Positions 26,640 to 64,000 of a stretch of 64,000 bases of DNA are shown in pieces (positions within the stretch are counted from its first letter, which is position 1; every line of letters starts with the position of its first letter). A program made the translations under genes and the position numbers. Origin of the DNA: Candidatus Oxydemutatoraceae bacterium (GTDB lineage Bacteria > Pseudomonadota > Gammaproteobacteria > Poriferisulfidales > Oxydemutatoraceae); the NCBI GenBank assembly GCA_965237985.1, contig OZ250161.1:1615012-1679011 (forward strand), written 5' to 3'. The notes beneath the pieces are model-generated. The model had not been told where the DNA came from, made no database searches, and saw only the letters and a program-made list of their open reading frames with translations.

Positions 26640-29600
26640 ATGAAGAAACAGGAAAAGATTGGGATCCGTTCACGTTTGCAGAAACTTTCGACCCTCAATG
26701 GCGAGGATGAAATCCGTTCGGAAGTTGGTGAATTGTTCGAGCTTCTCGGGCTGCCGGACAAGAGCCTTCAACACCGGGTTGGCAGATGGTTCGCAGATCT
26801 GGTTTTTTACTCTGCTCGTTTGGTCATTGAGACCAAAGCCCGTGGCAAAGTAAATCCTGAGGATAGAGGGAGCGGACTTGACGAGACCCAGAAAGGGCAG
26901 CTGGCACGCTATCTTGAGAAACTGACTGCAAAAGAAATTTCTCCCTCTGACCAGCCATGGCGCGGCGTCTTGACCGACGGGGAAACCTGGCATGTCTACG
27001 AATGGAACACAAAGTCCCATCCGGGCCGTGAGAAGAGTGGGCCTCGTTCCTCTCGCGTTGCCGAACCTAGGCCGTCTTTGTATGGGTGGAATGATGAACG
27101 GATGCGCGAGATTCGTCCAAAATTTCAGTTTCAAGCCAAGCATAACGGGCGTGCCGAGAGCTTCATTGAATTTTTTCGCCAATACCTTGCTCCTGAAAAA
27201 CGCCGGGGAAAACCTGCTCCCCCGTCGGATTTGGGGACCTCGGTGCTCCAGCCTTTTTTTCATGATTTAGCACAACTTGCTGAGAACGCCGAAGGAGATC
27301 CGCATTTCAACACGAAGTTTCGGGTTTGGAAAAGCGTCCTGAAGGGGGCCGGGCTGTTGCCGCCGGAGGGCATGGTCTCACGTACCCGCAGGTTGTTCCG
27401 GGAACATACGGCACTGGTCGTTACAGCCAGGGGCATTCTCAATGCGATGGGAAAAACAACTCAGCGTGATGCCGGCTTGGACCGAGACTTGAACAGTGGC
27501 TTTGTGTCTTGGTTGCAGGAGGTCACTGGGGGGGCAGAACGTACCCGGCAGTTGTTTCAGGATCTCGAAAAGTACGAATGGCGCGGTACCACCAGAGATG
27601 TGATGCGCACCGCCTACGAGCAATTGATCAAGGCAGAAGATCGCAAGGAATTCGGCGAATACTACACTCCAGATTGGCTGGCTACTGCCGTCTGCGAGGA
27701 CGTTTTGGATGTGGACTGGTTGAACCACGCCTTGGCCGCTGCCCGGCAGGCGCTCACGAGCCGAAGAGCCAGAGAATCTCGGATAGAACCCCTGCTGGGG
27801 ATCGGTGTGTTGGATCCGGCTTGTGGTTCGGGAACCTTTCTGTTCCATGCGGCGCGCCGAATTGTAGACCATGCAGTTCGGGAACGTGGGTTTTCCCCTA
27901 AAGAAGCTTGCCATGCTGCAGCCATTCTGGTTCATGGCATGGATATCCACCCGGTAGCGGTGGAAATGTCACGGGCGGTTTTGCGCACTGCCCTGCCCGA
28001 CCTGGACGATCAGGATGCAGAGCACTTGTCGGTTTACGTTGGCGATTCCCTGCAGACTGACGAGTTTCAGAGTGGAACCCTTTTGGGCAAAGATACAGTC
28101 TATGTTCAGTCCACAAAAGATCATTCCATTGAAATTCCACGTGATCTGTTGAGCCGACCGGATTTTTCCGTGCTCATTGAATGCCTGGTCGGTGCCGCGT
28201 TAGAAAAAGAACCGCTGAACTTGTGCGAATTTGAGATGGACAAGAGTCTGGAAAAGAAATTGCAGATTGCCTATCGGGCGCTCAAGAAAATTTGTCGGGA
28301 CGAGGGCAATCATGTTTGGGCTTGGAAAATTCGGAATACAGCGAAACCGCTGCAATTGACTGGATCAGGAGTTGACCGTCTGATTGGGAATCCTCCCTGG
28401 ATTGTGTCGAACGATACCCCGGAAGGAGTACGCAAGCAGGCGTTCAAGGAAATGACAAAGGGCTATGGACTTCGAGACCCGAAGCTGCACAGAAGTTCCG
28501 CGAAAGGCGATCTGGCAGCTTTATTTGCGGTGCGTGCCATTGATTTGTATTTGGCGTCGGGTGACGGTCGCAAGGGCGGAGGCGGGGTAGCGAAGCGTTT
28601 TGCCTTTGTTTTGCCTGGTTCTGCCCTGATCAACCAAGTATGGAGACCTTTTCGCACTGGGAACTGGCAAGGAAAGCAACACAGAGTGGAAGCGACTCTG
28701 GAAACTCCGTGGGATTTGGGAGGGGTCAAAGAAGCACCTTTTCCACATGCGCCGAACCAGGCGTGCGTGGTTCGGGGGTACTTGGGGGCAGCGCAACAAC
28801 TTCCCAAGGCGATTTTCTGGAAGGCAAGCGACGTGGAACTTGAGCAAGACTGGGAGACTGCGCGCAGACTTATCCGACAAAGTTCCGGATCTGAAGCCTT
28901 CCCTGAGCCGAAGGCAAGCCTGTATGTGCGCGAATTTCATCTCGGTGTGATGTTGAGGCCACTGTGCCTGGGACTGACGACCGATTGGGAAAGCCGTGGA
29001 GATCTGATCCGATTCACCACTTACCGTTCCACGAAGGGACCTTGGAAAGGGAAACAGTACAGAGGCGAAATGGAAGCAGAAGCGACACATTCACTGTTGC
29101 GTTCCCAAACGCTTCGCGCTTTTCGTGCTCTCCCGGACGCATTGCTGCTCGCTCCGTTGCGCGACGAGTCCATCGCGGATTTGGAAACCTGGCCCAAGGC
29201 TTGGTTGCCCAAGGCCCGCAAGTGGTTTCGGGAACATGAAAAAGTCTTCCAGAAATATCGTAGTTCGAAGTCTGCTCCTTCGCTACTGGGGAATATTAAT
29301 TGGAAGAACACCTTCACACGGCAGTATCTACGAGCTTTGAAATCGCCCAAGGCACTGCGCAAAGTTGTTTATAACGCGTCAGGGAGCTCGCTTCGTGCCG
29401 CGCGTGTTGTACTTGGTTTGGCGGTCAATGCGAAGTGTTACTACGCAATACTGACAAGCGAGAAAGCAGCAGCTTACCTTGTGGCCACATTGAACGCACC
29501 GTGTCTATTGCCGGCTTGGAACCATTACAAGACAAGCAGGCTGGATTACGATTTGAACCCTTTGCGAAGCGTGCCGGTTCCTGTTTTTGACAAAACTGAC

Positions 29601-29747
29601 GAACTGCACCTGGATTTGGTGGGAGCCTGCCTGGCAGCCGAACAGGCGGTGGCCCAAAGCAACTCGGCCAAAGATGAGATCCCTCATGAGATACTTGAGC
29701 GGATTGACCGTTGTGTGCGTAGCTTGCTCAAGGAATATGTTCAGTGA
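26640..29747 (+). CDS. Type IIL/IIG restriction-modification enzyme, MmeI family (endonuclease plus gamma-class N6-adenine methyltransferase plus target-recognition domain, one polypeptide)
   Basis: N-terminal 'FADLVFYSARLVIETKARGK' matches the MmeI nuclease motif (D-x10-E-x-K, compare MmeI 'FVDLFWPGILLIEMKSRGK'). MTase motif X 'FGEYYTPDWLA', motif I 'VLDPACGSGTFLFHAARRI', motif IV 'LIGNPPWIV'. Followed by about 450 aa of TRD. 1035 aa. Confidence 0.8.
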   Translation: MKKQEKIGIRSRLQKLSTLNGEDEIRSEVGELFELLGLPDKSLQHRVGRWFADLVFYSARLVIETKARGKVNPEDRGSGLDETQKGQLARYLEKLTAKEISPSDQPWRGVLTDGETWHVYEWNTKSHPGREKSGPRSSRVAEPRPSLYGWNDERMREIRPKFQFQAKHNGRAESFIEFFRQYLAPEKRRGKPAPPSDLGTSVLQPFFHDLAQLAENAEGDPHFNTKFRVWKSVLKGAGLLPPEGMVSRTRRLFREHTALVVTARGILNAMGKTTQRDAGLDRDLNSGFVSWLQEVTGGAERTRQLFQDLEKYEWRGTTRDVMRTAYEQLIKAEDRKEFGEYYTPDWLATAVCEDVLDVDWLNHALAAARQALTSRRARESRIEPLLGIGVLDPACGSGTFLFHAARRIVDHAVRERGFSPKEACHAAAILVHGMDIHPVAVEMSRAVLRTALPDLDDQDAEHLSVYVGDSLQTDEFQSGTLLGKDTVYVQSTKDHSIEIPRDLLSRPDFSVLIECLVGAALEKEPLNLCEFEMDKSLEKKLQIAYRALKKICRDEGNHVWAWKIRNTAKPLQLTGSGVDRLIGNPPWIVSNDTPEGVRKQAFKEMTKGYGLRDPKLHRSSAKGDLAALFAVRAIDLYLASGDGRKGGGGVAKRFAFVLPGSALINQVWRPFRTGNWQGKQHRVEATLETPWDLGGVKEAPFPHAPNQACVVRGYLGAAQQLPKAIFWKASDVELEQDWETARRLIRQSSGSEAFPEPKASLYVREFHLGVMLRPLCLGLTTDWESRGDLIRFTTYRSTKGPWKGKQYRGEMEAEATHSLLRSQTLRAFRALPDALLLAPLRDESIADLETWPKAWLPKARKWFREHEKVFQKYRSSKSAPSLLGNINWKNTFTRQYLRALKSPKALRKVVYNASGSSLRAARVVLGLAVNAKCYYAILTSEKAAAYLVATLNAPCLLPAWNHYKTSRLDYDLNPLRSVPVPVFDKTDELHLDLVGACLAAEQAVAQSNSAKDEIPHEILERIDRCVRSLLKEYVQ

Positions 29748-35876: not shown

Positions 35877-36983
35877 TCACAGTATTCGTGTGTTTTGTTG
35901 GTGTTCGAATTCGAAAATGCAGTCAGTCAAGGTCTGGCTTTTGATGGCGTTGCGGACGGTTTTCAGCAGATTTTGGTAATAGTGCAGATTGTGAAAAGTA
36001 TTCAGTATGGGGCCGAGCATTTCGTTGCTGTGGTCGAGGTGGTTCAAATAGGCGCGGCTGAAATGCTTGCAGGTATAGCAGGCGCAGTCAAGGTCAACGG
36101 GGCGCAGGTCTTTCCGGTATGCGGCATTGCCGATTTTCAATATGCCGCGACTGGTGTACAGGAACCCGGTTCGGGCGTTTCGAGTTGGAATGACGCAATC
36201 AAACAGATCCACACCATGACGTATTGCGGTTAGCAGGTCTTCGGGCCGGCCGATGCCCATCAGGTAGCGCGGCTGGTTTTCTGGCAGCAAAGGCAAGGTG
36301 TCGGCGAGCACCTGCACTCGTGTTTCGGCGTCTTCGCCGACTGAAAGGCCGCCGATCGCATATCCGTCAAAAGCCATATCGCACAGCATTGCCGCTGAAG
36401 TAGCGCGCAGGTCGGTGTACATGCCGCCCTGCACAATGCCAAAGATTGCCGAATCGACGCCGGCATGTGCTGCTTTGGATCGGGCTGCCCAGCGCATGGA
36501 ACGCTGCATGGAAGCTTCCGCGACTGCTTTGCTGACGGGATGCGCAGTACACTCGTCGAATGCCATGGTGACATCGCTGCCAAGTGCTATCTGTACGGCG
36601 ACGGAACGTTCCGCATCCAGCAGAAATTCCTGGCCATTCAACGGCGAGCGGAAACAGGCACCACGCTCAGTAACCCGGCAATGTTTCCCGAGACTGAAAA
36701 CCTGATAGCCGCCCGAATCAGTCAGAATCGGCCCGTCCCAGCCCATGAATGCATGCAGGCCACCGGCATCACGGATAATGTTTTCGCCCGGGCGCAACAT
36801 GAGGTGGTAGGCGTTTGCCAGGATCATGCGCGCTCCGCTTTCGACCATCATTCTGGGAGTCAGCCCCTTGACGGTAGCCTGTGTTCCCACCGGCATGAAA
36901 GCAGGCGTCGGGACGGTGCCGCGCGGGAAACGCAATTCCCCGGCGCGCGCCTGACCGCAGTGACTGTCAACGTGAAACTGCAT
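35877..36983 (-). CDS. tgt: Queuine tRNA-ribosyltransferase (tRNA-guanine transglycosylase)
   Basis: 'RGTVPTPAFMPVGTQATVKG', 'LTDSGGYQVFSL', zinc site 'CACYTCKHFSRAYLNHL'. Start at 'MQFHV', Met 5 of the ORF. Confidence 0.9.
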   Translation of the reverse strand: MQFHVDSHCGQARAGELRFPRGTVPTPAFMPVGTQATVKGLTPRMMVESGARMILANAYHLMLRPGENIIRDAGGLHAFMGWDGPILTDSGGYQVFSLGKHCRVTERGACFRSPLNGQEFLLDAERSVAVQIALGSDVTMAFDECTAHPVSKAVAEASMQRSMRWAARSKAAHAGVDSAIFGIVQGGMYTDLRATSAAMLCDMAFDGYAIGGLSVGEDAETRVQVLADTLPLLPENQPRYLMGIGRPEDLLTAIRHGVDLFDCVIPTRNARTGFLYTSRGILKIGNAAYRKDLRPVDLDCACYTCKHFSRAYLNHLDHSNEMLGPILNTFHNLHYYQNLLKTVRNAIKSQTLTDCIFEFEHQQNTRIL

Positions 36984-37255
36984 GGTTTTTCTCAATTACA
37001 CGTGGTGTCTTTGAAATGGTAAAAGCAGCGTTCAAGCCTAAAGGTTTGTTGCGGTGTGTGCAGCGCAGGTGTTTGCCAGGATCATGCGCGCTCCGCTTTC
37101 GACCATCATTCTGGGCGTTAGCCCCTTGACGGTAGCCTGTGTTCCCACCGGTATGAAAGCAGGCGTCGGGACGGTGCCGCGCGGGAAACGCAATTCCCCG
37201 GCGCGCGCTTGGCCGCAGTGGCTGTCAACGTGAAACTGCATGGTTTTTCTCAATC
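36790..37255. repeat. Tandem duplication, two ~230-bp units, of the queA 3' end-tgt 5' end junction
   Basis: 36813-37020 is nearly identical to 37067-37275. The second copy yields the ORF 37038..37346, a tgt N-terminal fragment ('MQFHVDSHCGQARAGELRFPRGTVPTPAFIPVGTQATVKG...'). Confidence 0.85.
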
Positions 37256-38271
37256 CACATGGCGTCCCCGAAACTGTAAAAGCGATATAGGTTCGTAATG
37301 GCGTGTTCATAAGCCGCACGCATTTTTTGAAGGCCAGCAAACGCACAAACCAGCACGAAAAGCGTGCTGCGGGGCAAATGAAAATTGGTGATCAGTGCAT
37401 CCACAACTTTGAAAGCATAACCGGGGCGTATGAAGAGGTTGGTTTCACCGCTTTGTGGCAGCAGCTCTCCGGTGGTGTCGCAGGCAGCTTCCAATGTGCG
37501 CAAGGCAGTGCTCCCAACCGCGATGACTTTTCCTCCTCGAGCCCGACACGCGGCTATTTCCGCGCTGGTTTTGGCGTTCAGTATAAAGCGCTCACTGTGC
37601 AAGTGGAGCTGCGTCAGACTCTCGGACCGCAAAGGCTGAAAAGTTCCTGCACCGATGTGTAAAGTGATATTTGCCATGCGGATCTCGCGGTCGGCGAGTT
37701 TGCGGAGCAGCGCTTCGTCAAAGTGCAAACCGGCGGTCGGGGCTGCGACTGAACCGGGGTTCCGCGCATAAACAGTCTGATATCTTTCCCGATCCATACT
37801 GTCCGTGGCGCGTTTGATGTAGGGGGGCAACGGGACTTTTCCAGATTGGTTCAGAAGTGATTCCATGGTTTCATCAGCGGCGGTTTCGATCACGTAGAAT
37901 TGGCTTTTGCTCAGGGACACAACACGCAAATGGGCACCATTATTGAGTGTAAGGATGGTGTTTTCCCGTACCCGATTGCTGGCGGAAAGAGAACAGTTTG
38001 CCTGGCGGTCGTCGAGGATGCGTTCAATGAGAATTTCCACTTTCCCGCCGCTGCTTTTGTGTCCATGTAAACGTGCGGGGATGACTTTGCTGTCATTGAA
38101 CACCAGCAAATCGCCAGACGACAGGAGTTGTGTGACCTGATGGAAGCGAAGGTCGTGGAAAGTGTTGTTGCCTTCGGGAACGTGCAACAGACGGGCAGCG
38201 GTGCGCTGTTCGGCAGGATAGTATGCAATTCGCTTCTCTGGAAGCGTGTAATCGAAATCGCTGGTTTTCAT
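37225..38271 (-). CDS. queA: S-adenosylmethionine:tRNA ribosyltransferase-isomerase
   Basis: 'MKTSDFDYTLPEKRIA' N-terminus and 'GDAMW' C-terminus. I trimmed the ORF to Met 13. Confidence 0.9.
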   Translation of the reverse strand: MKTSDFDYTLPEKRIAYYPAEQRTAARLLHVPEGNNTFHDLRFHQVTQLLSSGDLLVFNDSKVIPARLHGHKSSGGKVEILIERILDDRQANCSLSASNRVRENTILTLNNGAHLRVVSLSKSQFYVIETAADETMESLLNQSGKVPLPPYIKRATDSMDRERYQTVYARNPGSVAAPTAGLHFDEALLRKLADREIRMANITLHIGAGTFQPLRSESLTQLHLHSERFILNAKTSAEIAACRARGGKVIAVGSTALRTLEAACDTTGELLPQSGETNLFIRPGYAFKVVDALITNFHLPRSTLFVLVCAFAGLQKMRAAYEHAITNLYRFYSFGDAMWIEKNHAVSR

Positions 38272-38309
38272 CCCGCGCTGGCAATGCTTCGGCTTAGCAC
38301 AAGACAAAA

Positions 38310-41300
38310 GAATTCATGGTGGAACGCAGCGGTGTCTGAGCGACCGGAAAGTATCGTTTCCCGTGGTCACGGCACAATGGGCTTGCGGTCATGCATATTC
38401 CGGAAGTCAGACCATCCGGTACCGAGTGGTTGCGCAAATCCGGCATCATACTTTTGACTGTCATCAGTTTCTTTTGGACATTGGCATTCATGGTGGAACG
38501 CAGCGGTGTCTGAGCGACCGGGAAATATCGTTTCCTGCGGTCACGGCATAATGGGTTTGCGGTCATGCGTATTCCGGAAGTCAGACCATCCGGTACCGAG
38601 AGGTTGCGCAAATCCGGCATCATACTTTCGGCAGCCATCAGTGTCTTTTGGACATTGGCATTCATGGTGGAACGCAGCGGTGTCTGAGCGTTCGGAAAGT
38701 ATCGTTTCCCGTGGTCACGGCATAATGGGTTTGCGGTCATGCATATTCCGGAAGTCAGGCCATCCAGTACCGAGAGGTTGCGCAAATCCAGCACTACATT
38801 TTCGGTAGTCATCAGTGTCTTTTGGACATTGGCATTCATGGTGGAACGCAGCGGTGTCTGAGCGACCGGAAAATATCGTTTCCCGTGGTCACGGCATAAT
38901 GGGCTTGCGGTCATGCATATTCCGGAAGTCAGACCATCCGGTACCGAGGGGTTGCGCAAATCCAGCACTACTTTTCGACTAGTCATCAGTTTCTTTTGGA
39001 CATTGGCATTCATGGTGGAACGCAGCGGTGTCTGTGAGCGACCGGAAAGTATCGTTTCCCGTGGTCACGGCATAATGGGTTTGCGGTCATGCATATTCCG
39101 GAAGTCAGACCATCCGGTACCGAGAGGTTGCGCAAATCCGGCATCATACTTTTCGACAGTCATCAGTTTCTTTTGGACATTGGCATTCATGGTGGAACGC
39201 AGCGGTGTCTGAGCGTTCGGAAAATATCGTTTCCTGCGGTCACGGCATAATGGGTTTGCGGTCATGCGTATTCCGGAAGTCAGACCATCCGGTACCGAGA
39301 GGGTTGCGCAAATCCAGCACTGCATTTTCGGCAGTCATTAGTGTCTTTTGGACATTGGCATTCATGGTGGAACGCAGCAGTGCCTGAGTGAGCGACCGGA
39401 AAATATCGTTTCCCGTGGTCACGGCATAATGGGCTTGCGGTCATGCGTATTCCGGAAGTCAGACCATCCGGTACCGAGGGGGTTGCGCAAATCCGGCACA
39501 TATTTTCGGCAGTCATCAGTGTCTTTTGGACATTGGCATTCATGGTGGAACGCAGCGGTGCCTGAGCGTTCGGAAAATATCGTTTCCGTGGTCACGGCAT
39601 AATGGGGTCGTGGTCATGCGTATTCCGGAAGTCAGACCATCCGGTACCGAGAGGTTGCGCAAATCCGGCATCATACTTTTGACTGTCATTAGTTTCTTTT
39701 GGACATTGGCATTCATGGTGGAACGCAGCGGTGTCTGAGCGACCGGAAAATATCGTTTCCTGCGGTCACGGCATAATGGGTTTGCGGTCATGCGTATTCC
39801 GGAAGTCAGACCATCCGGTCACCGAGAGGGTTGCGCAAATCCAGCATCATTTTCGGCAGTCATCAGTGTCTTTTGGACATTGGCATTCATGGTGGAACGC
39901 AGCGGTGTCTGAGCGTTCGGAAAATATCGTTTCCTGCGGTCACGGCATAATGGGTTTGCGGTCATGCATATTCCGGAAGTCAGACCATCCGGTACCGAGG
40001 GGGTTGCGCAAATCCGGCACTGCATTTTCGGCAGTCATCAGTGTCTTTTGGACATTGGCATTCATGGTGGAACGCAGCGGTGTCTGAGCGACCGGAAAGT
40101 ATCGTTTCCCGTGGTCACGGCATAATGGGTTGCGGTCATGCGTATTCCGGAAGTCAGACCATCCGGTACCGAGGGGTTGCGCAAATCCGGCACTGTATTT
40201 TCGGCAGTCATCAGTGTCTTTTGGACATTGGCATTCATGGTGGAACGCAGCGGTGTCTGAGCGACCGGAAAGTATCGTTTCCTGTGGTCACGGCATAATG
40301 GGTTTGCGGTCATGCGTATTCCGGAAGTCAGACCATCCGGCACCGAGAGGTTGCGCAAATCCAGCATCATACTTTCGACTGTCATCAGTTTCTTTTGGAC
40401 ATTGGCATTCATGGTGGAACGCAGCGGTGTCTGAGCGACCGGAAAGTATCGTTTCCTGCGGTCACGGCATAATGGGTTTGCGGTCATGCGTATTCCGGAA
40501 GTCAGGTCACCCTTCACAGAGGGGTTGCGCAAATCCGGCACTGTATTTTCGGCAGTCATCAGTGTCTTTTGGACATTGGCATTCATGGTGGAACGCAGCG
40601 GTGCCTGAGTGAGCGACCGGGAAATATCGTTTCCTGCGGTCACGGCATAATGGGCTTGCGGTCATGCTATTCCGGAAGTCAGGCCATCCGGTACCGAGGG
40701 GGTTGCGCAAATCCGGCATCATACTTTCGGCAGTCATCAGTGTCTTTTGGACATTGGCATTCATGGTGGAACGCTTGAGCGACCGGGAAATATCGTTTCC
40801 TTGGCACAATGGGTTTGCGGTCATGCGTATCACAGAGGGGTTGCGCAAATGGCACTATATTTTCAGCAGTGTCTTTTGGACATTGGCATTCATGGTGGAA
40901 CGCAGCGGTGTCTGTGCGACCGGAAAGTATCGTTTCCCGTGGTCACGGCATAATGGGCTTGCGGTCATGCGTATTCCGGAAGTCAGACCATCCGGTCCGA
41001 GAGGTTGCGCAAATCCGGGATTTTCAGGAGGCCAGGGGGTTGCGCAAATCCGGCATCATACTTTTGACTGTCATCAGTTTCTTTTGGACATTGGCATTCA
41101 TGGTGGAACGCAGCGGTGTCTGCGACCGGAAAGTATCGTTTCCTGCGGTCACGGCATAATGGGTTTGCGGTCATGCGTTTCCGGAAGTCAGGCCATCCGG
41201 TACCGAGAGGTTGCGCAAATCCAGCATCATACTTTTGACTGTAAGTTTCTTTTGGGCATTGGCATTCATGGTGGAACGCAGCGGTGCTGATGAGCGTCCG

Positions 41301-42950
41301 GAAAATAGGTCACGGCATAATGGGTTTGCGGTCATGCGTATTCCGGAACCGAGAGGGGGTTGCGCAAATCCAGCACTGTATTTTCGGCACTGTTGAACAT
41401 TGGCATTCATGATGGAACGCAGCGGTGTCTGAGTGATCGGAAAGTATCGTTTCCTGTGGTCACGGCATAATGGGTTTGCGGTCATGCGTATTCCGGGTCA
41501 GACCATTACCGATGATTGCGATACGCAGCATTAGTTTCTTTTGAACATTGGCATTCATGGTGGAACGCAGCGGTGTCTGTGCGACCGGAAAATATCGTTT
41601 CCCGCGGTCACGGCATAATGGGTTTGCGGTCATGCATATTCCGGAAGTCAGGCCATCCGGTACCGAGAGGTTGCGCAAATCCGGCACTATATTTTCGGCA
41701 GCCATTAGTTTCTTTTGGACATTGGCATTCATGGTGGAACGCAGCGGTGTCTGAGCGACCGGAAAGTATCGTTTCCTGCGGTCACGGCATAATGGGTTTG
41801 CGGTCATGCGTATTCCGGAAGTCAGGCCATCCGGTACCGAGAGGTTGCGCAAATCCGGCACTATATTTTCGGCAGCCATCAGTGTCTTTTGAACATTGGC
41901 ATTCATGGTGGAACGCAGCGGTGTCTGTGCGACCGGAAAGTATCGTTTCCTGCGGTCACGGCATAATGGGTTTGCGGTCATGCGTATTCCGGAAGTCAGG
42001 CCATCCCTTCACCGAGGGGTTGCGCAAATCCGGCACATATTTTCGGCAGCCATCAGTGTCTTTTGGACATTGGCATTCATGGTGGAACGCAGCAGTGCCT
42101 GAGTGAGCGTCCGGGAAATATCGTTTCCTGCGGTCACGGCATAATGGGCTTGCGGTCATGCGTATTCCGGAAGTCAGGTCATCCAGTACCGAGAGGTTGC
42201 GCAAATCCGGCATCATACTTTCGGCAGTCATCAGTGTCTTTTGGACATTGGCATTCATGGTGGAACGCAGCGGTGTCTGTGCGACCGGAAAGTATCGTTT
42301 CCTGCGGTCACGGCATAATGGGTTTGCGGTTATGCATATTCCGGAAGTCAGGCCATCCAGTACCGAGAGGTTGCGCAAATCCAGCACTACATTTTCGGTA
42401 GCCATCAGTGTCTTTTGGGCATTGGCATTTATGGTGGAACGCAGCGGTGTCTGAGCGACCGGAAAGTATCGTTTCCCGTGGTCACGGCATAATGGGTTTG
42501 CGGTAATGCGTATTCCGGAAGTCAGGTCACCCAGTACCGAGAGGTTGCGCAAATCCAGCACTACATTTTCGGTAGCCATCAGTTTCTTTTGGACATTGGC
42601 ATTCATGGTGGAACGCAGCGGTGCCTGAGCGACCGGAAAGTATCGTTTCCCGTGGTCACGGCATAATGGGTTTGCGGTCATGCATATTCCGGAAGTCAGG
42701 TCATCCGGTACCGAGGGGTTGCGCAAATCCGGCACTATATTTTCGGCAGTCATCAGTTTCTTTTGAACATTGGCATTCATGGTGGAACGCAGCGGTGTCT
42801 GAGCGTTCGGAAAATATCGTTTCCTGCGGTCACGGCATAATGGGTTTGCGGTAATGCGTATTCCGGAAGTCAGGTCACCCTTCACAGAGGGATTGCGCAA
42901 ATCTGGCACTACATTTTCGGTAGCCATCAGTTTCTTTTGGACATTTTGTT
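38310..42950. repeat. Tandem array of ~176-bp units, about 26 copies, each copying the murJ 5' end (about 90 nt) plus about 85 nt of upstream sequence
   Basis: 'ttttggacattggcattcatggtggaacgcagcggtg' recurs about every 176 bp from 38474 to 42945. The last unit diverges from genuine murJ immediately after 'ttttggacatt'. Plus-strand frames give '...RKSGTTFSVAISVFWTLAFMVERSGV*'. Confidence 0.9.
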
Positions 42951-44467
42951 CCCGAATACTTGGTTATCTGCGTGATATTGCAATTTTTCTGACTTTTGGA
43001 GCAACCGGGCTCACGGATATTTTCCTGGTGGCTTTTCGCCTGCCGAATTTTTTTCGTCGCCTGTTCGCCGAGGGGGCTTTCACTCAAGCTTTCGTTCCTG
43101 TGCTGACCACCATGTTGCACAAGTCTCCAGCTGGAGAAGTCCGAAATTTCATCAGTCGGACTTTTGGCTCCCTCGCGGTCGTGTTGTTTGTGGTAACCGC
43201 GATTGGGATGTTGCTGGCCCCCGTGCTGATTTTTCTGTTTGCTCCAGGTTTGTCCGAGCATGCCGGGCAACTGGAGTTGGCTTCGGAAATGCTCCGCATC
43301 ACCTTCCCCTATCTTATTTTCATTTCTCTGGCGGCTATGGCTACGGGGGTTCTCAACTGTTTCGGGGCTTTCGGCGTACCGGCTTTTACCCCGGTACTGC
43401 TCAATCTGTCGCTGATCGGTGCCGCCTTGTGGCTGGCGCCGCGTATGGAGGAACCGATTACCGCTTTGGCGTGGGGTGTTTTGGCAGGCGGGGCAGCCCA
43501 GCTTCTGGTACAACTGCCGTTTCTTGCCGGTCGACGGATGCTGAGCTGGCCACGCATCGGTTTTTCCAATCCGCAGGTGCGCAAGGTCTTGCAGTTGATG
43601 TCGCCAGCGATACTGGGTTCTTCTGTGGTACAGATCAATTTGCTGATCGATACCTTCATTGCTTCGTGGCTGATCAGCGGCAGCATCAGCTGGCTTTATT
43701 TGTCGGATCGTTTTGTCGAGTTTCCGGTCGGCTTGTTCGGCGTGACTTTGTCCATGATTCTTTTGCCGCGCATGGCCCTCAGCTTTGCCGAGCGGTCGCC
43801 GGCAAGATACAACGCGCTGCTGAACTGGGGAGGGGCGGTGGTTCTTTTGACTGCCCTGCCGAGTCTGGCGGGACTCGTGCTTTTATCCGCCCCGATTTTA
43901 AGCACCCTGGTTCAATACGGGGAGTTCACCGCACACGATGTTCGCATGACCGAATTGAGCCTCATGGCTTACGCCGTCGGGATTCCGGCTTTCATATCGG
44001 TGAAGGTGCTCAATGCTGCGTTTTTCGCGCGCCATGAAATGCGCCTGCCGGTCAAAATCGCAGTGGGGTGCGTGTTGGCAAATCTGGTTTTCAATGTCAG
44101 CTTCGTGCTCCTTTGGCAATACTTCAATGTCGCCGGAGTACACGCCGGTCTGGCGCTGGCAACGAGCCTGTCTTCCTGGTTGAATACAGCCCTGCTGTTC
44201 GGTGCTTTGTCGCGGCGCGACTTGCTGCACATTGATCCGCTGATTAAAAAGCTGTCGTTGCGTGTGGTCATCGCTTCCCTGACAATGATTGCGCTGCTTG
44301 TGGTTTTTTTGCCGGATGCGTCGGCATGGGGACCTTGGTCCGCTGGACAGAGAATGTTGGTTTTGGCCGAACTGGTGCTGGGTGGGGCAAGTGCCTATGT
44401 CGTGGTTTTGTATGTTTCCGGATTTCGCTGGCGAGACGTGAAAGTGTTGGAAAAAGGCAGGCCCTGA
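42854..44467 (+). CDS. murJ: Lipid II flippase MurJ (MviN)
   Basis: 'FGATGLTDIFLVAFRLPNFFRRLFAEGAFTQAFVPVL', about 14 TM helices, 537 aa. The start is ambiguous between ATG 42854 and TTG 42893 because the N-terminus is embedded in the repeat. Confidence 0.85.
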   Translation: MRIPEVRSPFTEGLRKSGTTFSVAISFFWTFCSRILGYLRDIAIFLTFGATGLTDIFLVAFRLPNFFRRLFAEGAFTQAFVPVLTTMLHKSPAGEVRNFISRTFGSLAVVLFVVTAIGMLLAPVLIFLFAPGLSEHAGQLELASEMLRITFPYLIFISLAAMATGVLNCFGAFGVPAFTPVLLNLSLIGAALWLAPRMEEPITALAWGVLAGGAAQLLVQLPFLAGRRMLSWPRIGFSNPQVRKVLQLMSPAILGSSVVQINLLIDTFIASWLISGSISWLYLSDRFVEFPVGLFGVTLSMILLPRMALSFAERSPARYNALLNWGGAVVLLTALPSLAGLVLLSAPILSTLVQYGEFTAHDVRMTELSLMAYAVGIPAFISVKVLNAAFFARHEMRLPVKIAVGCVLANLVFNVSFVLLWQYFNVAGVHAGLALATSLSSWLNTALLFGALSRRDLLHIDPLIKKLSLRVVIASLTMIALLVVFLPDASAWGPWSAGQRMLVLAELVLGGASAYVVVLYVSGFRWRDVKVLEKGRP

Positions 44468-51233: not shown

Positions 51234-51653
51234 ATGCAGACCATAGCAGTGCGCATAGTCAGCCAGAAGGGCGAGGTTTACAACGGTAAGGCAAACATAG
51301 TCAGCGCCGATGCCCACGACGGCGGAGTCGGGATATACCCTGGGCACGCCCCGTTCCTGACCTTGCTCCGACCAGGAGAAGTCAAAGTGCAGGTCGAAGG
51401 AAAAGAAGACCTGCGCTTTTTCGTGGCCGGTGGCATGCTCGAGGTTCAGCCCGACTTGGTGACAGTTCTGGCAGACACCATTGAGCGTAGCGAAGACCTG
51501 GACGAAGACCGCGCCGAAGCGGCAAAGAAACAGGCAGAAGCGCTGGCGCACAAAGGCGATCTAAGCCCTGAGGACAGAGCCAGAGCCATCGAACAACTCA
51601 CCGAAGCGGTTGCCCGCCTGCACATGATCGAAGAACTCCAGAAACGGCACTAA
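51234..51653 (+). CDS. atpC: ATP synthase F1 subunit epsilon
   Basis: N-terminal beta-sandwich ('VVSAD...GILPGHAP') plus C-terminal helical hairpin. 139 aa. Confidence 0.9.
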   Translation: MQTIAVRIVSQKGEVYNGKANIVSADAHDGGVGIYPGHAPFLTLLRPGEVKVQVEGKEDLRFFVAGGMLEVQPDLVTVLADTIERSEDLDEDRAEAAKKQAEALAHKGDLSPEDRARAIEQLTEAVARLHMIEELQKRH

Positions 51654-51659
51654 CACTAA

Positions 51660-52140
51660 CCCCACCCAAGACCCGCCATGCTCGAGGTTCAGCCCGACTT
51701 GGTGACGGTTCTGGCAGACACCGTTGAGCGTAGCGAAGACCTGGACAAAGACCGCGCCGAAGCGGCAAAGAAACAGGCAGAAGCGCTGGCGCACAAAGGC
51801 GATCTAAGCCCTGAGGCCAGAGCCAGAGCCATCGAACAACTCACCGAAGCCGTTGCCCGCCTGCACATAGATCGAAGAACTCCAGAAACGGCACTGACCC
51901 CACCCAAGACCCGCCATGCTCGAAGTTCAGCCCGACTTGGTGACGGTTCTGGCAGACACCGTTGAGCGTAGCGAAGACCTGGACAAAGATCGTGCCGAAG
52001 CGGCAAAGAAGCAGGCAGAAGCGCTGGCGCACAAAGGCGATCTAAGCCCTGAGGACAGAGCCAGAGCCATCGAACAACTCACCGAAGCCGTTGCCCGCCT
52101 GCACATAGATCGAAGAACTCCAGAAACGGCACTAACACTA
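51660..52140. repeat. Two additional ~238-bp tandem copies of the atpC 3' end, immediately downstream of atpC
   Basis: 'ccatgctcga.gttcagcccgacttggtgac.gttctggcagacacc' occurs at 51425 (in the gene), 51677 and 51915. The copies yield the pseudo-ORFs 51678..51965 and 51916..52266 ('MLEVQPDLVTVLADTVERSEDLD...'). Confidence 0.9.
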
Positions 52141-52604
52141 ACCCCACCCAAGACCTGTAAAGCACCAACAGCCCGCTGTCCGCACAACCCCTTCCCCGCG
52201 CGGCTCACTTTTACAGACAACACTCCCAACCTACAACGCGCCACCAGAAAATTCCCCAAAATCTAAAGCAAAGTGAGCGTATCCCCCGCCAAAGCCAGTC
52301 CGGGCCGTGGCAGGGGCTAATAAATCTGTCAGATGAGGAGGATGCCAGAGGCTGCCGATGCTGAGGAGGATGCCAGAGGCTGCCGATGCTAGAGACCGCT
52401 CCTGACAAAAATCGCCTTTCGGATTCTTTCAAATGTCACCTGATAGAGCTGCGGATTTTCCAGGTGCGTTGGTGTTGAGAAGCACGGACTGTGGTGTAGA
52501 GATGAGAGGTGATAAAAAAGGATTTCGTGTTGATAAATTGCAGATACAAAACACCTCAGCGGCATGTTTTTGGAAACCATTTTGGAATTCTTCCGATCAA
52601 CGTG

Positions 52605-52642: not shown

Positions 52643-52852
52643 TGGGTAATGTCCGAGGGATATCCGAGCGACCTGGAATACACTTCGATACCGGCAGCGG
52701 TACTTATCCGATGTGTCAGACGAACATGAACTTTCGATCTGTATCGTTGGTGTTTTCACGGTGGGTGCAAAATCCGCAGATTAGTGACTAACAACCAAAA
52801 TCCTCGTATACTCCGGAACACATCATCGGGGGTTGCATATTTTGGCAAGAAA

Positions 52853-54574
52853 ATGGCGGAAAAACTAACTCTCCAACAACTCGAGTCCTTTCTCTGGGAA
52901 ACCGCAGACATTCTCCGTGGCAACATGGATGCGTCTGAGTTCAAGGACTACATCTTCGGCATGATGTTCCTGAAACGTCTCTCGGACTCGTTTGAGGAAG
53001 AGCAAGAAAAAGTCATTCAGTACTACGTCTCGTCAGGAAAGTCACGGAAGCAAGCAGAGCAACTCGCATCTGACGAGGATGAGTACGACAAAACGTTCTT
53101 TGTTCCCGAACCTGCGCGATGGCACCAACTCAAGGATCTCAAGCACGACATTGGTGCAGAACTGAACAAGGCGACAGAGACGATCGAGGAACACAACTCA
53201 AGTCTCGAAGGGGTGTTGGTTTCCGTCGACTTCAACATCAAGAACAAACTCTCAGACAAGAAACTTCAGGATCTCCTGTCTCATTTTTCTCGTCATCGAC
53301 TGAGGAATGAGGATTTCGAGAACCCCGACCTGATGGGAGGGGCATACGAATACCTCATCAAGCAGTTTGCAGACTCGGCGGGAAAGAAGGGTGGAGAGTT
53401 CTATACCCCGAGTGAAGTGGTGAAACTTCTGGTATCCCTCCTCAAACCTCGTGCGGGTATGAAGATATATGATCCAACGGTTGGTTCCGGTGGAATGTTA
53501 GTGACCACCAGGCACTACCTCATCGATCACGGAGAGGATAAGTCCAACCTGTCCCTGTATGGTCAGGAGATGAACCTGAACACGTGGGCGATCTGCAAGA
53601 TGAACATGTTCCTACATGGCGTGTTCAACGCAGATATACGCAAAGGTGACACTCTGAGAGATCCTCAGCACATCTCAGGTGGTGAGTTGCAGGTATTTGA
53701 TCGGGTGATCGCAAATCCACCGTTCTCTCTGAAGAAATGGGGGAAAGATGAAGCAGATAACGATGCGTATGGACGGTTTCCCTACGGAACACCTCCCAAG
53801 GGTGCAGGAGATCTTGCATTCATTCAGCATATGATTGCATCTCTGAACGCAGAGGGAGTGATGGGGGTGGTGGTTCCTCACGGCGTTCTGTTCCGTGGAG
53901 CGAGTGAGAAGGAAATTCGCAAGGGTATTCTTGAGGATGATCTACTCGAGGGAGTGGTTGGACTACCCTCGGGACTGTTCTACGGCACAGGAATTCCTGC
54001 TGCACTCCTGATCATTAACAAAAACAAACCCTCAGATCGAAAAGGGAAGGTATTCTTCATTAACGGTGAACTGGAGTTTGAAGAAGGTAAAAACCAGAAC
54101 AAACTCCGTGAGGAGGATATTCAGAGAATTCTCGCGACCTTCGATGGTTACGAGGACGAGAAGCGATACGCGAAGATCGTTTCCATCGAGGAGATCCGTA
54201 AGAACGACTACAACCTGAACATTCGCAGGTATGCAGACACTTCACCCCCACCAGAACAATTTGATGTCCGTGCGATCCTTCACGGTGGAATTCCCATCAG
54301 TGAGGTGGGGGACGAATATGTTCAGGAAACCCTGCAGGGAATGGATGTCGGTAGTGTGTTCGTTCGCAGGGACAACGAATACTACGAGTTCAAACCTGAG
54401 ATTGAGTCCAAGGAACAGATACGTGAGTTCCTGAACACGGATGAGCAGTCAACCATCAACCAATTCGAGAGGTGGTGGGACAAGTATCGTGTCTCCCTGC
54501 ACGAACTGGATGCAGAGGTGAAACAGTCGGAAGAAGTGATGTGGGGTTATCTGAAGGAAATTGGATATGAGTGA
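52853..54574 (+). CDS. hsdM: Type I restriction-modification system, methyltransferase subunit
   Basis: HsdM_N ('[32 protein letters not shown]'), motif I '[12 protein letters not shown]', motif IV 'IANPPF'. I took the start at 'MAEKL', Met 24 of the ORF. Confidence 0.9.
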
Positions 54575-55967
54575 TATCAGAACGGAAAAATCTTTTGAAA
54601 AGAGAAAACTTAAAGATATTTCTTCCATCAAACCCGGCATAAATGTTCCCGCGGAGATGAAAGGAACGATGAACGAGTTGTTGACCAAAGGGATCGGTCA
54701 CACAGAGTTCAAGGACAGTGAGTTGGGGAGAGTTCCTGAGGGTTGGGAGGAAATTACTCTAGAAACTTTAGTTTCAGTCGATAGCGATTCCTTGAAAGGA
54801 AATACAGACGCCAATTATAGGTTCAAATATATTGATATTTCGTGTGTCTCGACTGGAAAAGTGATGCCACCCGCCGAGAAAATTTTGTTTAAGGACGCAC
54901 CAAGCAGGGCAAAACGAGTTGTAAAGCGCGGCGATGTTTTAGTTGCCACAGTTCGCCCAAATTTAAAGGCATTCGCCCACTTTGATGAAGAGGGTGATGG
55001 TTGGGTGGCATCAACTGGTTTCGCAGTCCTTCGGCATAAGGAAAACTCTGATAGTCGGTTTATTTACAATATTATGCTGTCGGATGATGTCAGCAGGCAA
55101 ATAGATAGACTTGTTGCAGGGTCAAATTACCCAGCAATAAGTTCGTCTGATGTTAAAGAGTTAACTTTATTGTCCCCACCCCTCTCAGAACAAAAGAAAA
55201 TCGCATCCATTCTCACCTCCGTTGATGAGGTGATTGAGGAAACCCAATCGCAAATCGACAAACTCCAAGATCTGAAAAGAGGAACGATGAACGAGTTGCT
55301 GACCAAAGGGATTGGTCACACAGAGTTCAAAGACAGTGAGTTGGGGAGAATTCCGAAGAGTTGGGAAATTACCTCAATTTCCGAAATCACGAGTGATAAT
55401 TCCCTATTCTCTGACGGTGATTGGGTTGAAAGCAAAGATCAAGACCCGGGGGGGGCAAATAGACTTATCCAACTCGCAGATATTGGTGACGGAAGTTTTA
55501 TCGACAAATCCGTAAGGTTTATGAACGATGAGCAGTTCCGCCGCTTGAATTGCACCGCTCTTATGAAGGACGACATATTGGTTGCAAGAATGCCTGAACC
55601 GCTCGGGCGTGCATGTCTTTTCCAGAATACAAAACAAGACTGTGCAACTGTTGTCGATGTGGCGATCATCCGAACGCCGAACACGAATCCATATTGGTTA
55701 ATGTCAGTTATTAACTCTGCAAATTTCAGACGGAAAATTGAAATTAATGCGCGCGGTACAACTAGGACACGGATTAGTCGTTCTGCATTGTCAGATATAA
55801 AAATAAATCTCCCCTCCCTCTCAGAACAAAAGAAAATCGCATCCATTCTCACCTCCGTTGATGAGGTGATTGAGAAAATCCAATCGCAAATCGACAAACT
55901 CAAATCCCTCAAAAAATCCCTCATGCAGGATCTCCTGACGGGTAAAGTCAGAGTGTCGGTGAACTGA
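54561..55967 (+). CDS. hsdS: Type I restriction-modification system, specificity subunit with two TRDs
   Basis: Duplicated conserved spacer '[23 protein letters not shown]' (twice), '[19 protein letters not shown]' (twice), and C-terminal '[16 protein letters not shown]'. Confidence 0.9.
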
Positions 55968-55968
55968 C

Positions 55969-58950
55969 ATGTCCTCCGATGAATTCGACAAGGTAGAACT
56001 CCCTGCACTGGAACAACTCCAGTCACTGGGATGGTCATACCTTGAGGGTTCCCAACTTTCTCCCGATGAGTCGGATGCACGCACCTCCTACAAGGACGTG
56101 GTTCTCGAAAACCGTCTTGAGAAAGCGATCCAACGTATCAATCCGTGGATCAGCGATGACAACCTGCGCAGGGTGATCAGTGAATTCACCAGAGCGCAGT
56201 TTCCGAACCTGATCGAGGCGAACCAGTCTGTCTGGAACACCCTCACGCAATACACCTCGGTCATGCAGGATGTGGGTAAGGGTAACCGAGGACAGACGGT
56301 CAAGGTCATCGACTTCGACACCCCTGAGAACAACGAGTTCCTCTGCACCAACCAATTCAAAGTCTCAGGGGTGAACCAGACAATCATTCCTGACATCATC
56401 CTGTTCGTGAATGGACTTCCTCTCGCAGTGATGGAGTGCAAATCCCCCTACATCACCAATCCCATGGAATCTGGGATTGGTCAGTTGATGCGGTACGCAA
56501 ACCGCAGAAACCTGCAAGACGATGAAGGTGCAGAGAAACTCTTTCACTACAACCAACTGATGGTTTCGACCCATCTGGACAAGGCGAGAGTGGGAACTAT
56601 CACTGCAAGAATGGAACACTTTCTGGAGTGGAAGGATCCCTATCCCCTGTCGGTTGCAGACATCGGGGCAAACCCCCAATCACAGGATATTCTGATCTCG
56701 GGAATGTTCAGCAAGACGAACTTCCTTGATCTCATTCAGAATTTCACGGTGTTTGAACCTGCCGATGGACGCACCGTGAAGAAGATCGCACGATATCAGC
56801 AATTCCGTGCAGTCCACAAATCCATTGAACGCATCCAATCGGGAACCGATCGCAAGAGCAAAAGCGGAGTTATTTGGCACACGCAGGGATCTGGCAAGTC
56901 CCTGACGATGGTTTACTTGGTACTCAAAATCCGACGAGACGAAGCACTGAGGGGCTACAAACTCGTTTTCATTACCGATCGTACGCAACTGGACAACCAA
57001 CTCACCGCAACCTTTCAGAATACGCAGAACGAAACGGTGCACCGTGCGGACTCCATCCGTGATCTGAAGGGTCTTCTACAGAAGGATTCATCCGATATCG
57101 TGATGGCAATGGTGCAGAAGTTTCAGGTGAGTGCGAAAGAACTGGAGTTTCCTGTTTTGAATAAGTCCAAGAAGATCATTGTTCTCGCAGACGAGGCACA
57201 CAGAACCCAATATGGAACTCTGGGTGCAGCACTCAACGTGGGACTCCCGCAGGCACCCAAGATTGCGTTCACTGGAACCCCTCTCATCAAATCTGAAAAA
57301 ACCACCAACGAATTTGGTTCCTATATCGACACCTACACCATCGAGCAGTCGGTTGAGGACGGAGCGACTATCCCAATTCTCTATGAGGGACGCGAAGCAA
57401 GGGTGAACGTCACAGGAGACTCTCTCGATGGTCTGTTCGATGAGTATTTTGCAGATAAGACGGAGGAAGAAAAATCTGCAATTAGACGCAAATACGGCAC
57501 CACGAAAGCAGTTCTCGAGGCACCCCAGCGTATTCGCAGGGTTTGCATCGATATTCTCAAGCACTACCGCGAATTCATTCAGCCCAATGGGTTCAAGGCG
57601 ATGATTGTCACCTCATCGCGGAGTGCGGCAATCACCTACAAGGAAATGATGGATGAACTGGAGGCACCAGGGTCCGCAGTCATCATCTCAGGTAATCACA
57701 ATGACGAGGAACGATTTCGGCAATACACGGACGGCACCAAACAGAAGAACCAGATATTGGATTTCAAGAAACCTCTGGGTTCCGATGAGGGACAGTCCAA
57801 TCTCTCGTTCCTGATCGTCAGGGACATGTTGTTGACGGGTTTCGACGCACCCATCGCGCAGGTGATGTATCTCGACAATAAACTTACCGATCACAACCTT
57901 TTGCAGGCGATTGCGCGTGTCAATCGAACCAATAGAAACAAGTTTCGTGGGTATATCGTCGACTATTATGGATTGAGCGATTACCTGACGGAAGCATTGG
58001 AGATGTTCTCGACGGAGGATGTGGAAGGTGCGTTGCGAGATCTCAAAGACGAGATACCAAGACTGCAGAACGCACACACGCGAGTGATGCAGTGCTTCAT
58101 GGGCATGGATCTGGACGATCTCGATGAATGCATTTTCTCTCTCGAGGATGAAGTCCGACGACAGCAGTTTCAGTTAGATTTTCGAAAATTCTCCCAGCAG
58201 ATGGACGTGGTTTTACCTGCTCCAGCAGCAAGCCCGTTTGTGTCGGATTTGAGAAGACTGGGGAAAATATCTCATGGAGCACGGAACCGCTTCAGAGATG
58301 AGCAACTCTTTATCGCAGGAGCAGGCGAGAAGGTTCGCAAACTGATAGAGGATCACATCTATTCGACAGGGGTGGATCCTAAAATCGACCCCGTTTATCT
58401 CCTGGCAGCGGATTTCAAAGAAAAATTGAACCAGCACAAATCCAGCAGGGCGAAAGCATCCGAGATCGAGAATGCGATCAAGCATCACATAAAGATCAAA
58501 CTCGAGGATGATCCCGAATTCTACAAATCTCTCTCCGAGAAATTAGAGTCCATCATTCGGAAGCACGAAGAGAAGTGGGGTGAGTTGGTTCAATCACTCA
58601 TGGATTTTCGTGGCACCATCGAGGAAGGACCAGAAGCAAGGGCAAAAGAACTCGGCCTGACGGAAACGGAGTTCGCGTTTCACAACATCCTGAAGGCAGA
58701 AGTCACCAAGGCCGAAGGTGTGGAGACAATCGACGAGGGCATGCATCAGAAGGTGAAGGATGTCTCCCGGAAACTCGTCGCAATGATGGACGAAGCAACG
58801 AAGATCGTTGATTTCTTCGAGAAATGGGACGAGCGAAGGAGAGTGCGTCGGGATATCAAACGCGCAATCATCGCAGAGTTTGATGATGTCAGTTTGGTGA
58901 AACCGATCACTGACAGGTTCATGGAACTGGCAGAGCGAAAGTTCCGATGA
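55969..58950 (+). CDS. hsdR: Type I restriction-modification system, restriction subunit (helicase/endonuclease)
   Basis: 993 aa. N-terminal HsdR_N, SF2 helicase motifs ('HTQGSGKSLTM' Walker A, 'VLADEAHRTQ' DEAH box). Confidence 0.9.
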   Translation: MSSDEFDKVELPALEQLQSLGWSYLEGSQLSPDESDARTSYKDVVLENRLEKAIQRINPWISDDNLRRVISEFTRAQFPNLIEANQSVWNTLTQYTSVMQDVGKGNRGQTVKVIDFDTPENNEFLCTNQFKVSGVNQTIIPDIILFVNGLPLAVMECKSPYITNPMESGIGQLMRYANRRNLQDDEGAEKLFHYNQLMVSTHLDKARVGTITARMEHFLEWKDPYPLSVADIGANPQSQDILISGMFSKTNFLDLIQNFTVFEPADGRTVKKIARYQQFRAVHKSIERIQSGTDRKSKSGVIWHTQGSGKSLTMVYLVLKIRRDEALRGYKLVFITDRTQLDNQLTATFQNTQNETVHRADSIRDLKGLLQKDSSDIVMAMVQKFQVSAKELEFPVLNKSKKIIVLADEAHRTQYGTLGAALNVGLPQAPKIAFTGTPLIKSEKTTNEFGSYIDTYTIEQSVEDGATIPILYEGREARVNVTGDSLDGLFDEYFADKTEEEKSAIRRKYGTTKAVLEAPQRIRRVCIDILKHYREFIQPNGFKAMIVTSSRSAAITYKEMMDELEAPGSAVIISGNHNDEERFRQYTDGTKQKNQILDFKKPLGSDEGQSNLSFLIVRDMLLTGFDAPIAQVMYLDNKLTDHNLLQAIARVNRTNRNKFRGYIVDYYGLSDYLTEALEMFSTEDVEGALRDLKDEIPRLQNAHTRVMQCFMGMDLDDLDECIFSLEDEVRRQQFQLDFRKFSQQMDVVLPAPAASPFVSDLRRLGKISHGARNRFRDEQLFIAGAGEKVRKLIEDHIYSTGVDPKIDPVYLLAADFKEKLNQHKSSRAKASEIENAIKHHIKIKLEDDPEFYKSLSEKLESIIRKHEEKWGELVQSLMDFRGTIEEGPEARAKELGLTETEFAFHNILKAEVTKAEGVETIDEGMHQKVKDVSRKLVAMMDEATKIVDFFEKWDERRRVRRDIKRAIIAEFDDVSLVKPITDRFMELAERKFR

Positions 58951-63260: not shown

Positions 63261-63431
63261 GAACTGCTGAACGAACTAATCCATGACTATATTATGAACA
63301 CACTCACCAGTGACTCTAGCAATCTGTATCCGTGTGCTGATGCTATTGATAGAGTGAGTGACGTGTTTGATTCATAAAGCATTAGCACCACACATTATTT
63401 ACTACCGTGTCCGAGTGTTATAAATTCAATA

Positions 63432-63998: not shown

Positions 63999-64000
63999 AG

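Follow-up and report, generated by a model that had tools for sequence, protein, structure and literature searches.

Why should the start of a housekeeping gene be copied again and again in front of the gene itself? The question is raised by a stretch of 64,000 nucleotides (nt) from contig OZ250161.1 of a Candidatus Oxydemutatoraceae bacterium (assembly GCA_965237985.1; we call the whole stretch the window), in which a long head-to-tail array of copies of the murJ start fills the space between the divergent genes queA and murJ. Our answer is that this array, which is real, lineage-specific and partly decayed, is probably a by-product of a symbiont genome that is prone to duplication and purges duplications only weakly, and not a device serving murJ. 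Coordinates are those of the window unless they are labelled L001, L002 or L003, which are relatives described below.

Anatomy of the murJ array

The array was delimited with Tandem Repeats Finder (TRF) and a direct-repeat finder. TRF reports a head-to-tail array with a period of 174 nt (also 348 nt), 26.6 copies, 82-92% matches and a top score of 5976, and the direct-repeat finder likewise gives a start-to-start spacing of 174 nt. The junction 'CATTGGCATTCATGGTGGAACG' served as an anchor and gave 27 unit starts, the first at 38312 and the last at 42775, of which 26 belong to extra copies and one to the genuine murJ; the units were aligned with MAFFT. The 26 junctions are spaced at 173-178 nt outside a degenerate core, and 22 of the 27 units are full length (173-178 nt). 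A preliminary description of this DNA, made from the letters alone, had already placed an array of murJ-start copies between divergent queA and murJ, and the repeat analyses and the NCBIfam matches of the flanking genes bear this out. Its count of 26 units holds for the extra copies, but the period is 174 nt rather than the 176 bp that it gave. It was also right that each unit copies the beginning of murJ (31 codons, where it had about 30), whereas the upstream part measures 79 nt and not some 85.

The murJ ATG lies at unit position 80: a unit consists of the 79 upstream nt, the 31 codons and, at the junction, 3 nt reading 'GGC'. In every one of the 27 units an ATG is retained where murJ starts, and the period of 174 nt equals 58 codons. 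Only the last unit, u27, runs on into murJ, with the repeat ending after 'TTTTGGACATT' at 42945, exactly where the genuine gene had been said to leave the unit. The MurJ model aligns from residue 24 only (model position 7), and therefore about 14 of the last codons in each unit are canonical MurJ while the first 17 or so form an N-terminal extension. The coding part of the unit thus holds this extension and the first half of the first transmembrane segment (TM1). On the other side of the array we set the queA start at the Met of 'MKTSDFDY...'; the longest open reading frame (ORF) reaches 38307.

Ahead of u27 the units form two blocks on either side of the degenerate core (Table 1). Core units are 52-91% identical to other units and their pseudo-ORFs are broken in most cases, while a TRF row at 41525-42945, which takes in the proximal block, has 92% matches. 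The genuine unit is 82-92% identical to the other full-length units, and has a rare variant, 'GGTCACCCTTCACAGAG', in common with u13 only.

A constant period and copies that follow head to tail without spacers are the marks of a tandem repeat. The unit is made of a gene end and its flank, and the only complete copy is the one that adjoins the gene body, u27. The array is therefore a long-period bacterial tandem repeat of an already known kind, and more precisely a terminus-straddling segment duplication. It is not an array of clustered regularly interspaced short palindromic repeats (CRISPR), as the units abut and have no unique spacers between them. Nor does it belong with dispersed elements such as repetitive extragenic palindromes (REP), bacterial interspersed mosaic elements (BIME) or miniature inverted-repeat transposable elements (MITE), since no copy of the unit lies elsewhere in the window and the units fold no better than shuffled sequences.

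Table 1. Positions of the murJ array, its parts, the genes beside it and the other tandem duplications in the window. Array sizes are given as unit length in nt x number of copies.
Feature	Position	Strand	Description
Array 174 x 27	38312-42945		Unit = murJ 5' start
Spacer, queA start to first unit	38272..38311		Sole unique stretch, 40 nt; holds 'caagacaaaaga', which is conserved in L001 (compared with L001 7593-7632)
Distal block u01-u14	38312..40758	+	14 full-length units of 173-178 nt; pairwise identity 84-98%
Degenerate core u15-u19	40759..41552	+	129, 208, 168, 141 and 148 nt; internal deletions and one insertion
Proximal block u20-u26	41553..42774	+	7 full-length units; most homogeneous part of the array
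Genuine unit u27	42775..42945	+	79 nt directly upstream of murJ and murJ codons 1-31
murJ	42854..44467	+	Intact, 537 amino acids; NCBIfam TIGR01695 murJ_mviN, 402 bits, residues 24-524
queA	37225..38271	-	Divergent from murJ; NCBIfam QueA equivalog NF001140, 449 bits, residues 1-343
tgt	35877..36995	-	NCBIfam
Array 125 x 12	4853-6386		Unit = thiF-family 3' end and TraB/GumN-like 5' start
Array 220 x 17	8239-12048		Unit = 3' end of SPOR-domain gene (11862-12380, -)
Duplication 296 x 3	18575-19531		Unit = rmuC 3' end; 97%, young
Composite array, period about 66	22047-22519		Unit = queG 5' start
Duplication 258 x 2	36809-37254		Unit = overlapping queA stop and tgt start
Duplication 238 x 3	51434-52155		Unit = atpC 3' half; 94%, young

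Variation among units and comparison with relatives

No two of the 27 units are identical. The 22 full-length units are 82-98% identical to one another, and each matches its best partner at 92-98%. Mean divergence between units is about 8%, and the nearest pairs are 2-8% apart. These are not the near-identical units of ongoing slippage or homogenization. Similarity is independent of distance along the array and, despite the TRF row at 348 nt, no higher-order (multi-unit) periodicity is evident, with mean identity flat at 0.89-0.93 at all unit lags. Among the 47 segregating columns there are 13 singletons, the other 34 being variants that several units share, and transitions outnumber transversions by 22 to 6. 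All four gametes are found in 230 of 378 biallelic site pairs, so the variants have been shuffled by recombination or gene conversion. These patterns point to an old array, with gene conversion but without rapid turnover.

The age of the array can be bracketed with the help of relatives. A MurJ-based scan of species-representative genomes found the nearest of these among Candidatus Oxydemutatoraceae metagenome-assembled genomes (MAGs), which are complete chromosomes of about 1.9 Mb. The family is gammaproteobacterial, with a type species that lives in symbiosis with the sponge Stylissa. The closest of these MAGs, L001 (OZ243039.1; about 82% nucleotide identity), has a MurJ of 83-84% amino acid identity and the same tgt-queA / murJ-atp gene order. 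Its queA-murJ spacer of 316 nt consists of exactly two diverged full-length units with the same 'cattGGCattcatg' junction, and TRF finds no tandem array in 17.5 kb of L001. The copy number at the orthologous spacer is thus 27 against 2, a comparison between species that rests on one close relative. As both species have the same junction, the first duplication predates their split, and the expansion from 2 to 27 copies is specific to the lineage of the window. Four-fold degenerate sites differ between the window organism and L001 at 32-36%, while the units are only about 8% apart. The expansion is therefore much younger than the split, yet not recent.

Two further relatives, L002 and L003 (58-59% MurJ identity), have other genes upstream of murJ, dsbD-like and thioredoxin-like, and are uninformative on the spacer. 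A metagenome scan with the junction 26-mer gave no match, and a MurJ-based metagenome scan returned only relatives of 50% identity or less. In L003 (OZ243040.1) the ORF just upstream of murJ ends in a 26-nt poly-C run (L003 7654-7679) that gives it a poly-proline tail; the run may be either a site of homopolymer slippage or an artefact of long reads.

Could an assembler have over-expanded a short duplication into 27 copies? This is very improbable on several grounds. No units are identical; their substitutions are mosaic and shared between units, with an excess of transitions that is unlike read-error noise. The degenerate core has deletions specific to single units. The same junction is found, in two copies, in the independently assembled L001, and six other arrays that differ in unit sequence and in age lie in the same window.

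What the units encode or carry

In each extra unit the truncated murJ frame crosses the junction to the first stop, giving one ORF of 40 amino acids per unit (MRIPEV...FFWTLAFMVERSGV, followed by the stop). Of the 26 extra units, 14 have kept this ORF whole and 12 have lost it by frameshift, premature stop or read-through. The preliminary description had drawn attention to a conserved mini-ORF, ATGGTGGAACGCAGCGGTGTCTGA, in every unit. It is present, in the murJ frame, the two ATGs being 75 nt apart. It is, however, the in-frame read-through tail of the truncated murJ ORF and no independent conserved element, and the L001 units differ in sequence at this position.

Does the array itself encode a repeat protein, or tandem structured RNAs? 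Two frames of the consensus, +2 and -0, are free of stops and, because 174 is 58 x 3, long ORFs result. Among these are minus-strand ORFs of 173-323 amino acids. The open frames follow from the period, however, and they break at spacings of 173, 175 and 178 nt; of the 26 spacings between units, 9 cannot be divided by 3. In the murJ frame, codon positions 1, 2 and 3 hold 12/8/12 variable sites, the three phases of the unit as a whole hold 19/16/12, and NCBIfam has no family for the 323-amino-acid ORF or the 40-amino-acid peptide. With no continuous frame, no codon-position bias and no family, the array does not have the properties of a repeat-protein gene: coding constraint is absent in every frame on both strands. 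The minus-strand ORFs were considered as genes and rejected on account of these frame breaks and the lack of any matching family.

The case for RNA is no better. Rfam has no match in the array, its sole match in the window being RNase P. RNAalifold on the units gives a covariation term of -1 with 1 compensatory pair of 48, and single-sequence folding shows no excess over shuffles (z-score -0.20). Lacking an Rfam match and covariation, the units do not qualify as leaders, riboswitches or an array of small RNAs. That the array encodes anything in its own right, as protein or as RNA, is accordingly scarcely credible.

A more serious proposal is that the array works as a multi-promoter or dosage device. 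The preliminary description had put forward a version of it, in which 26 potential promoter and ribosome-binding-site copies could have a strong effect on the expression of the essential flippase. Each unit would carry the murJ promoter and ribosome-binding site, and with read-through from many units into murJ the length of the array would set expression; alternatively, the array might insulate murJ from queA. Since the array occupies all of the 4.6 kb upstream of murJ, with the divergent queA beyond it, the promoter of murJ is almost certain to be part of the unit and hence present in many copies. All units retain the start codon, the upstream half is less variable than the half derived from coding sequence (nucleotide diversity, pi, of 0.056 against 0.100), and a terminator scan found no recurring terminator-like hairpins in the units and no excess over shuffles. 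That said, a promoter scan, admittedly crude, found no sigma-70-like site on the plus strand of the array, and promoter-like sites in the whole region number 4 against a shuffle mean of 5.1. Upstream of the genuine murJ, the 5' half of the unit lacks conservation in L001, a genome that manages with two units. Large deletions have damaged five units, and the pseudo-ORF is broken in 12 of the 26 extra copies. Furthermore, analogous arrays stand at six unrelated genes, several of them at 3' ends, where a promoter rationale fails. We consider a device of this kind improbable. As a promoter within the unit and the absence of observed terminators make extra transcription into murJ possible, such transcription and up to 14 small hydrophobic peptides of 40 amino acids may instead be side effects of the array.

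Silent partial-gene cassettes offer another analogy. In the pilS system of Neisseria, truncated variant copies lie near an expressed copy and exchange segments with it in a mosaic fashion. The murJ array likewise has multiple truncated variant copies near an expressed gene, with mosaic exchange. Could it be a 5' reservoir from which gene conversion varies the N-terminus of MurJ, for instance as a defence against a toxin or phage lysis protein directed at MurJ? Variation peaks in a 15-nt block of the murJ-derived part (pi 0.25, codons ~19-24) between conserved flanks, recombination among units is pervasive, and a rare segment of the expressed unit (codons 8-11, 'SPFT') recurs only in the distant u13. 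But pilS cassettes differ from the murJ copies, which include the start codon and upstream region and decay by frameshift. The murJ copies are not promoterless parts of a variable surface domain: they hold the N-terminal extension and the first half of TM1, a cytoplasmic or membrane segment of a housekeeping flippase, with no selection on the encoded peptide. There is no excess at any codon position, many copies have frameshifts or stops, and the same architecture recurs at the 3' ends of housekeeping genes such as atpC and rmuC. We give a cassette reservoir very little credence, slightly less than an assembly artefact.

Terminus duplications across the window and in other bacteria

The murJ array is one of seven tandem duplications in the window (Table 1), a set established by TRF on the whole window, the direct-repeat finder, Pfam on the flanking ORFs and probe searches. 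The seven together make up 19-20% of the window. For comparison, long-period repeats account for 0.24% of a pooled 1.29 Mb from 92 other bacterial murJ loci, and 86 of the 92 have none. A gene terminus is present in all seven units. With the arrays collapsed the genome is about 85% coding, and on an approximate gene map treated in this way a random segment of unit length holds a terminus 8-31% of the time; the chance of finding one in all seven under random placement is about 1e-5. Identities within the arrays range from about 66% to 97%, which shows that the duplication process has acted repeatedly over time. A motif common to the seven units, which could have hinted at a site-specific mechanism, was sought and nothing rose above the null, and when the arrays were compared by BLAST with the remainder of the window, no dispersed copies turned up. 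L001 has neither the tgt nor the atpC duplication. As six unrelated genes in one window have analogous duplications, a regulatory purpose specific to murJ is unlikely.

We propose the following history for the murJ array. A segment of about 174 nt straddling the murJ start was duplicated in tandem before the split from L001, and later amplified to 27 copies in the lineage of the window. Unequal sister-chromosome recombination, replication slippage or both may have driven the amplification, with continuing gene conversion; slippage and unequal recombination are the standard account of long-period arrays (PMC10710844, PMC3287509, PMC3673631). The fallback offered by the preliminary description, an extreme slippage product, is close to this reading, although the molecular mechanism is one that we infer. 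The array would have been tolerated because the last unit, fused to the murJ body, leaves one complete gene with its proximal upstream sequence, and the unique 40 nt beside queA are untouched. The 26 extra copies are decaying pseudo-starts, without detectable constraint and presumably near neutral. More generally, selection may purge duplications internal to genes, such that only those containing a terminus survive. Their persistence could reflect weak purging, by drift or a relaxed deletion bias, perhaps together with altered replication or repair functions.

Some observations sit uneasily with this account. Diversity along the unit is strikingly uneven: pi reaches 0.25 at positions 136-150 but is as low as 0.006 in the first 15 nt, a difference of about 40-fold, and there is the contrast already noted between the upstream-derived part (0.056) and the murJ-derived part (0.100). 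Pure neutral decay would not give such a pattern. It would also be surprising, if the deletion bias of bacteria is at work here, that a 4.6-kb array has lasted to about 8% divergence in a lineage whose relatives have genomes of only some 1.9 Mb. The uneven diversity could stem from constraint on the junction and upstream part, from local conversion tracts or from two old haplotypes. The first 15-30 nt past each junction (ATTCATGGTGGAACGCAGCGGTG; 38312-38341 in u01) are near-invariant across units, and the variable block has two divergent haplotypes, …CATCATACTTTTGAC… and …CACTACATTTTCGG…. We conjecture that the latter descend from the two ancestral units seen in L001, a likeness of only a few bases. 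In spite of these points, we consider a tolerated and decaying duplication the probable explanation of the murJ array.

The other duplications in the window vary in form. The 4853-6386 array has higher-order rows of 250 and 375 nt at 95-96%, and its unit spans the whole of a short intergenic spacer. The 8239-12048 array, with matches of 90-94%, adjoins the RNase P RNA gene (7676-8010, minus strand) and yields many spurious ORFs of 140 amino acids on the plus strand. In the divergent spacer of queG and the nnr (YjeF) gene, the composite array at 22047-22519 combines periods of 30, 36, 66 and 96 nt with 66-89% matches. In the 36809-37254 duplication, 188 nt match at 96%. Here queA keeps its normal C-terminus, and a truncated tgt pseudo-start precedes the intact tgt; the copies are separated by 70 nt that resemble a much more diverged copy of the queA 3' end. 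The queA/tgt overlap of L001 is unduplicated. Of the three atpC copies, the first keeps the correct C-terminus (…RLHMIEELQKRH, then the stop) and the other two are frameshifted. Each of the three queuosine genes that the window contains (tgt, queA and queG) abuts a tandem duplication, an association that is probably a coincidence.

A duplication of this type was also found in a relative. L002 (OZ245010.1), which is an Oxydemutatoraceae MAG more distant than L001, carries a tandem duplication (246 x 2, 91% identity) at L002 14597-15104, with a consensus that reads like the C-terminal region of ATP synthase gamma (an atpG-like 3' end). Terminus-type duplications thus occur occasionally elsewhere in the family.

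The window also holds two restriction-modification systems, a candidate MmeI-like methylase/endonuclease of 1035 amino acids and a type I hsdM-hsdS-hsdR set, and an ORF of 958 amino acids with an IS1595-type transposase domain. The guanine-plus-cytosine (GC) content, otherwise about 0.53, drops to 0.36-0.50 over the last 10 kb, a sign that this part may be mobile or acquired. The coordinates of these restriction-modification and transposase features and of the GC shift are 26640-29747, 52784-58950, 60094-62970 and 62001-64000.

How does this compare with known repeat-rich genomes? In Ehrlichia ruminantium, too, duplications create truncated gene fragments. The following description of this host-associated bacterium (Collins et al. 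2005, Frutos et al. 2006) comes from two secondary sources (PMC10710844, PMC3287509). By these accounts it has a small genome with many noncoding, head-to-tail, long-period repeats, of mean period 139 bp and up to 65 copies, with 6.3% of the genome in TRF rows, cited in 2012 as the highest bacterial tandem-repeat content. Slipped-strand mispairing is said there to expand and contract the repeats and so to inflate intergenic regions. The likeness lies in long-period, head-to-tail repeats in a small-genome lineage of host-associated type. Our lineage, however, is gammaproteobacterial and resembles sponge symbionts. The repeats of E. ruminantium are near-identical, whereas the murJ units have diverged by 2-12% and their array looks old and without rapid turnover. 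The local repeat load, about 19% of a 64-kb window, stands against 6.3% of a whole genome.

The intergenic VNTR-141 and VNTR-105 (variable-number tandem repeats) of Wolbachia have periods of 105-141 nt, some internally deleted units and copy numbers from 0.8 to 7.3 between related strains, for which slippage or mispairing is invoked (PMC3287509). Internal deletions of units and a copy number that differs between related genomes are common to both systems. Unlike the murJ array, the Wolbachia periods are 98-99% identical, form hairpins and are present in far fewer copies, and the units are not reported to be copies of gene starts (PMC3287509). In Portiera aleyrodidarum BT, tandem repeats and intergenic length have risen in one lineage while its sister lineage is compact; gene conversion is active, and a link has been proposed to relaxed deletion bias and the loss of dnaQ, mutL, ruvC and other genes (PMC3673631). 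Lineage-specific intergenic inflation, gene conversion and a compact relative are all seen in our case, but the repeats of Portiera BT are mainly 7-bp microsatellites, against units of 66-296 nt with gene termini here. The murJ array is set apart by its host and lineage, by the divergence of its units, by 27 copies of the start of an essential gene and by a very high local density of arrays.

It is possible, if rather doubtful, that the window samples an undescribed, tandem-duplication-prone genome regime, with arrays of 66-296 nt and up to 27 copies at gene termini throughout the chromosome. If this were true, the density would be several-fold higher than the 6.3% of E. ruminantium while the closest relative stays compact, and a particular replication or recombination function would probably have been lost or altered. 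An array at a 5' end, like the one before murJ with its 27 promoter-bearing copies, could then be a heritable expression element tunable by copy number. If the promoter in the units proved active, the locus would offer a natural experiment on how the expression of an essential gene depends on copy number. For annotators the murJ array is a warning, as it generates many spurious ORFs of up to 323 amino acids and 26 false murJ starts.

Taken alone, the murJ array is a curiosity, an essential gene with its start repeated 26 times before it in fossil form. It matters as an indicator of a genome-wide process, in that the lineage seems to accumulate long tandem arrays and not to purge them. The larger question is why it accumulates terminus-straddling arrays at all. 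The arrays reveal which duplications selection tolerates, only those with a gene end, and they bear on how deletion bias, drift and the loss of repair genes shape the genomes of symbionts.

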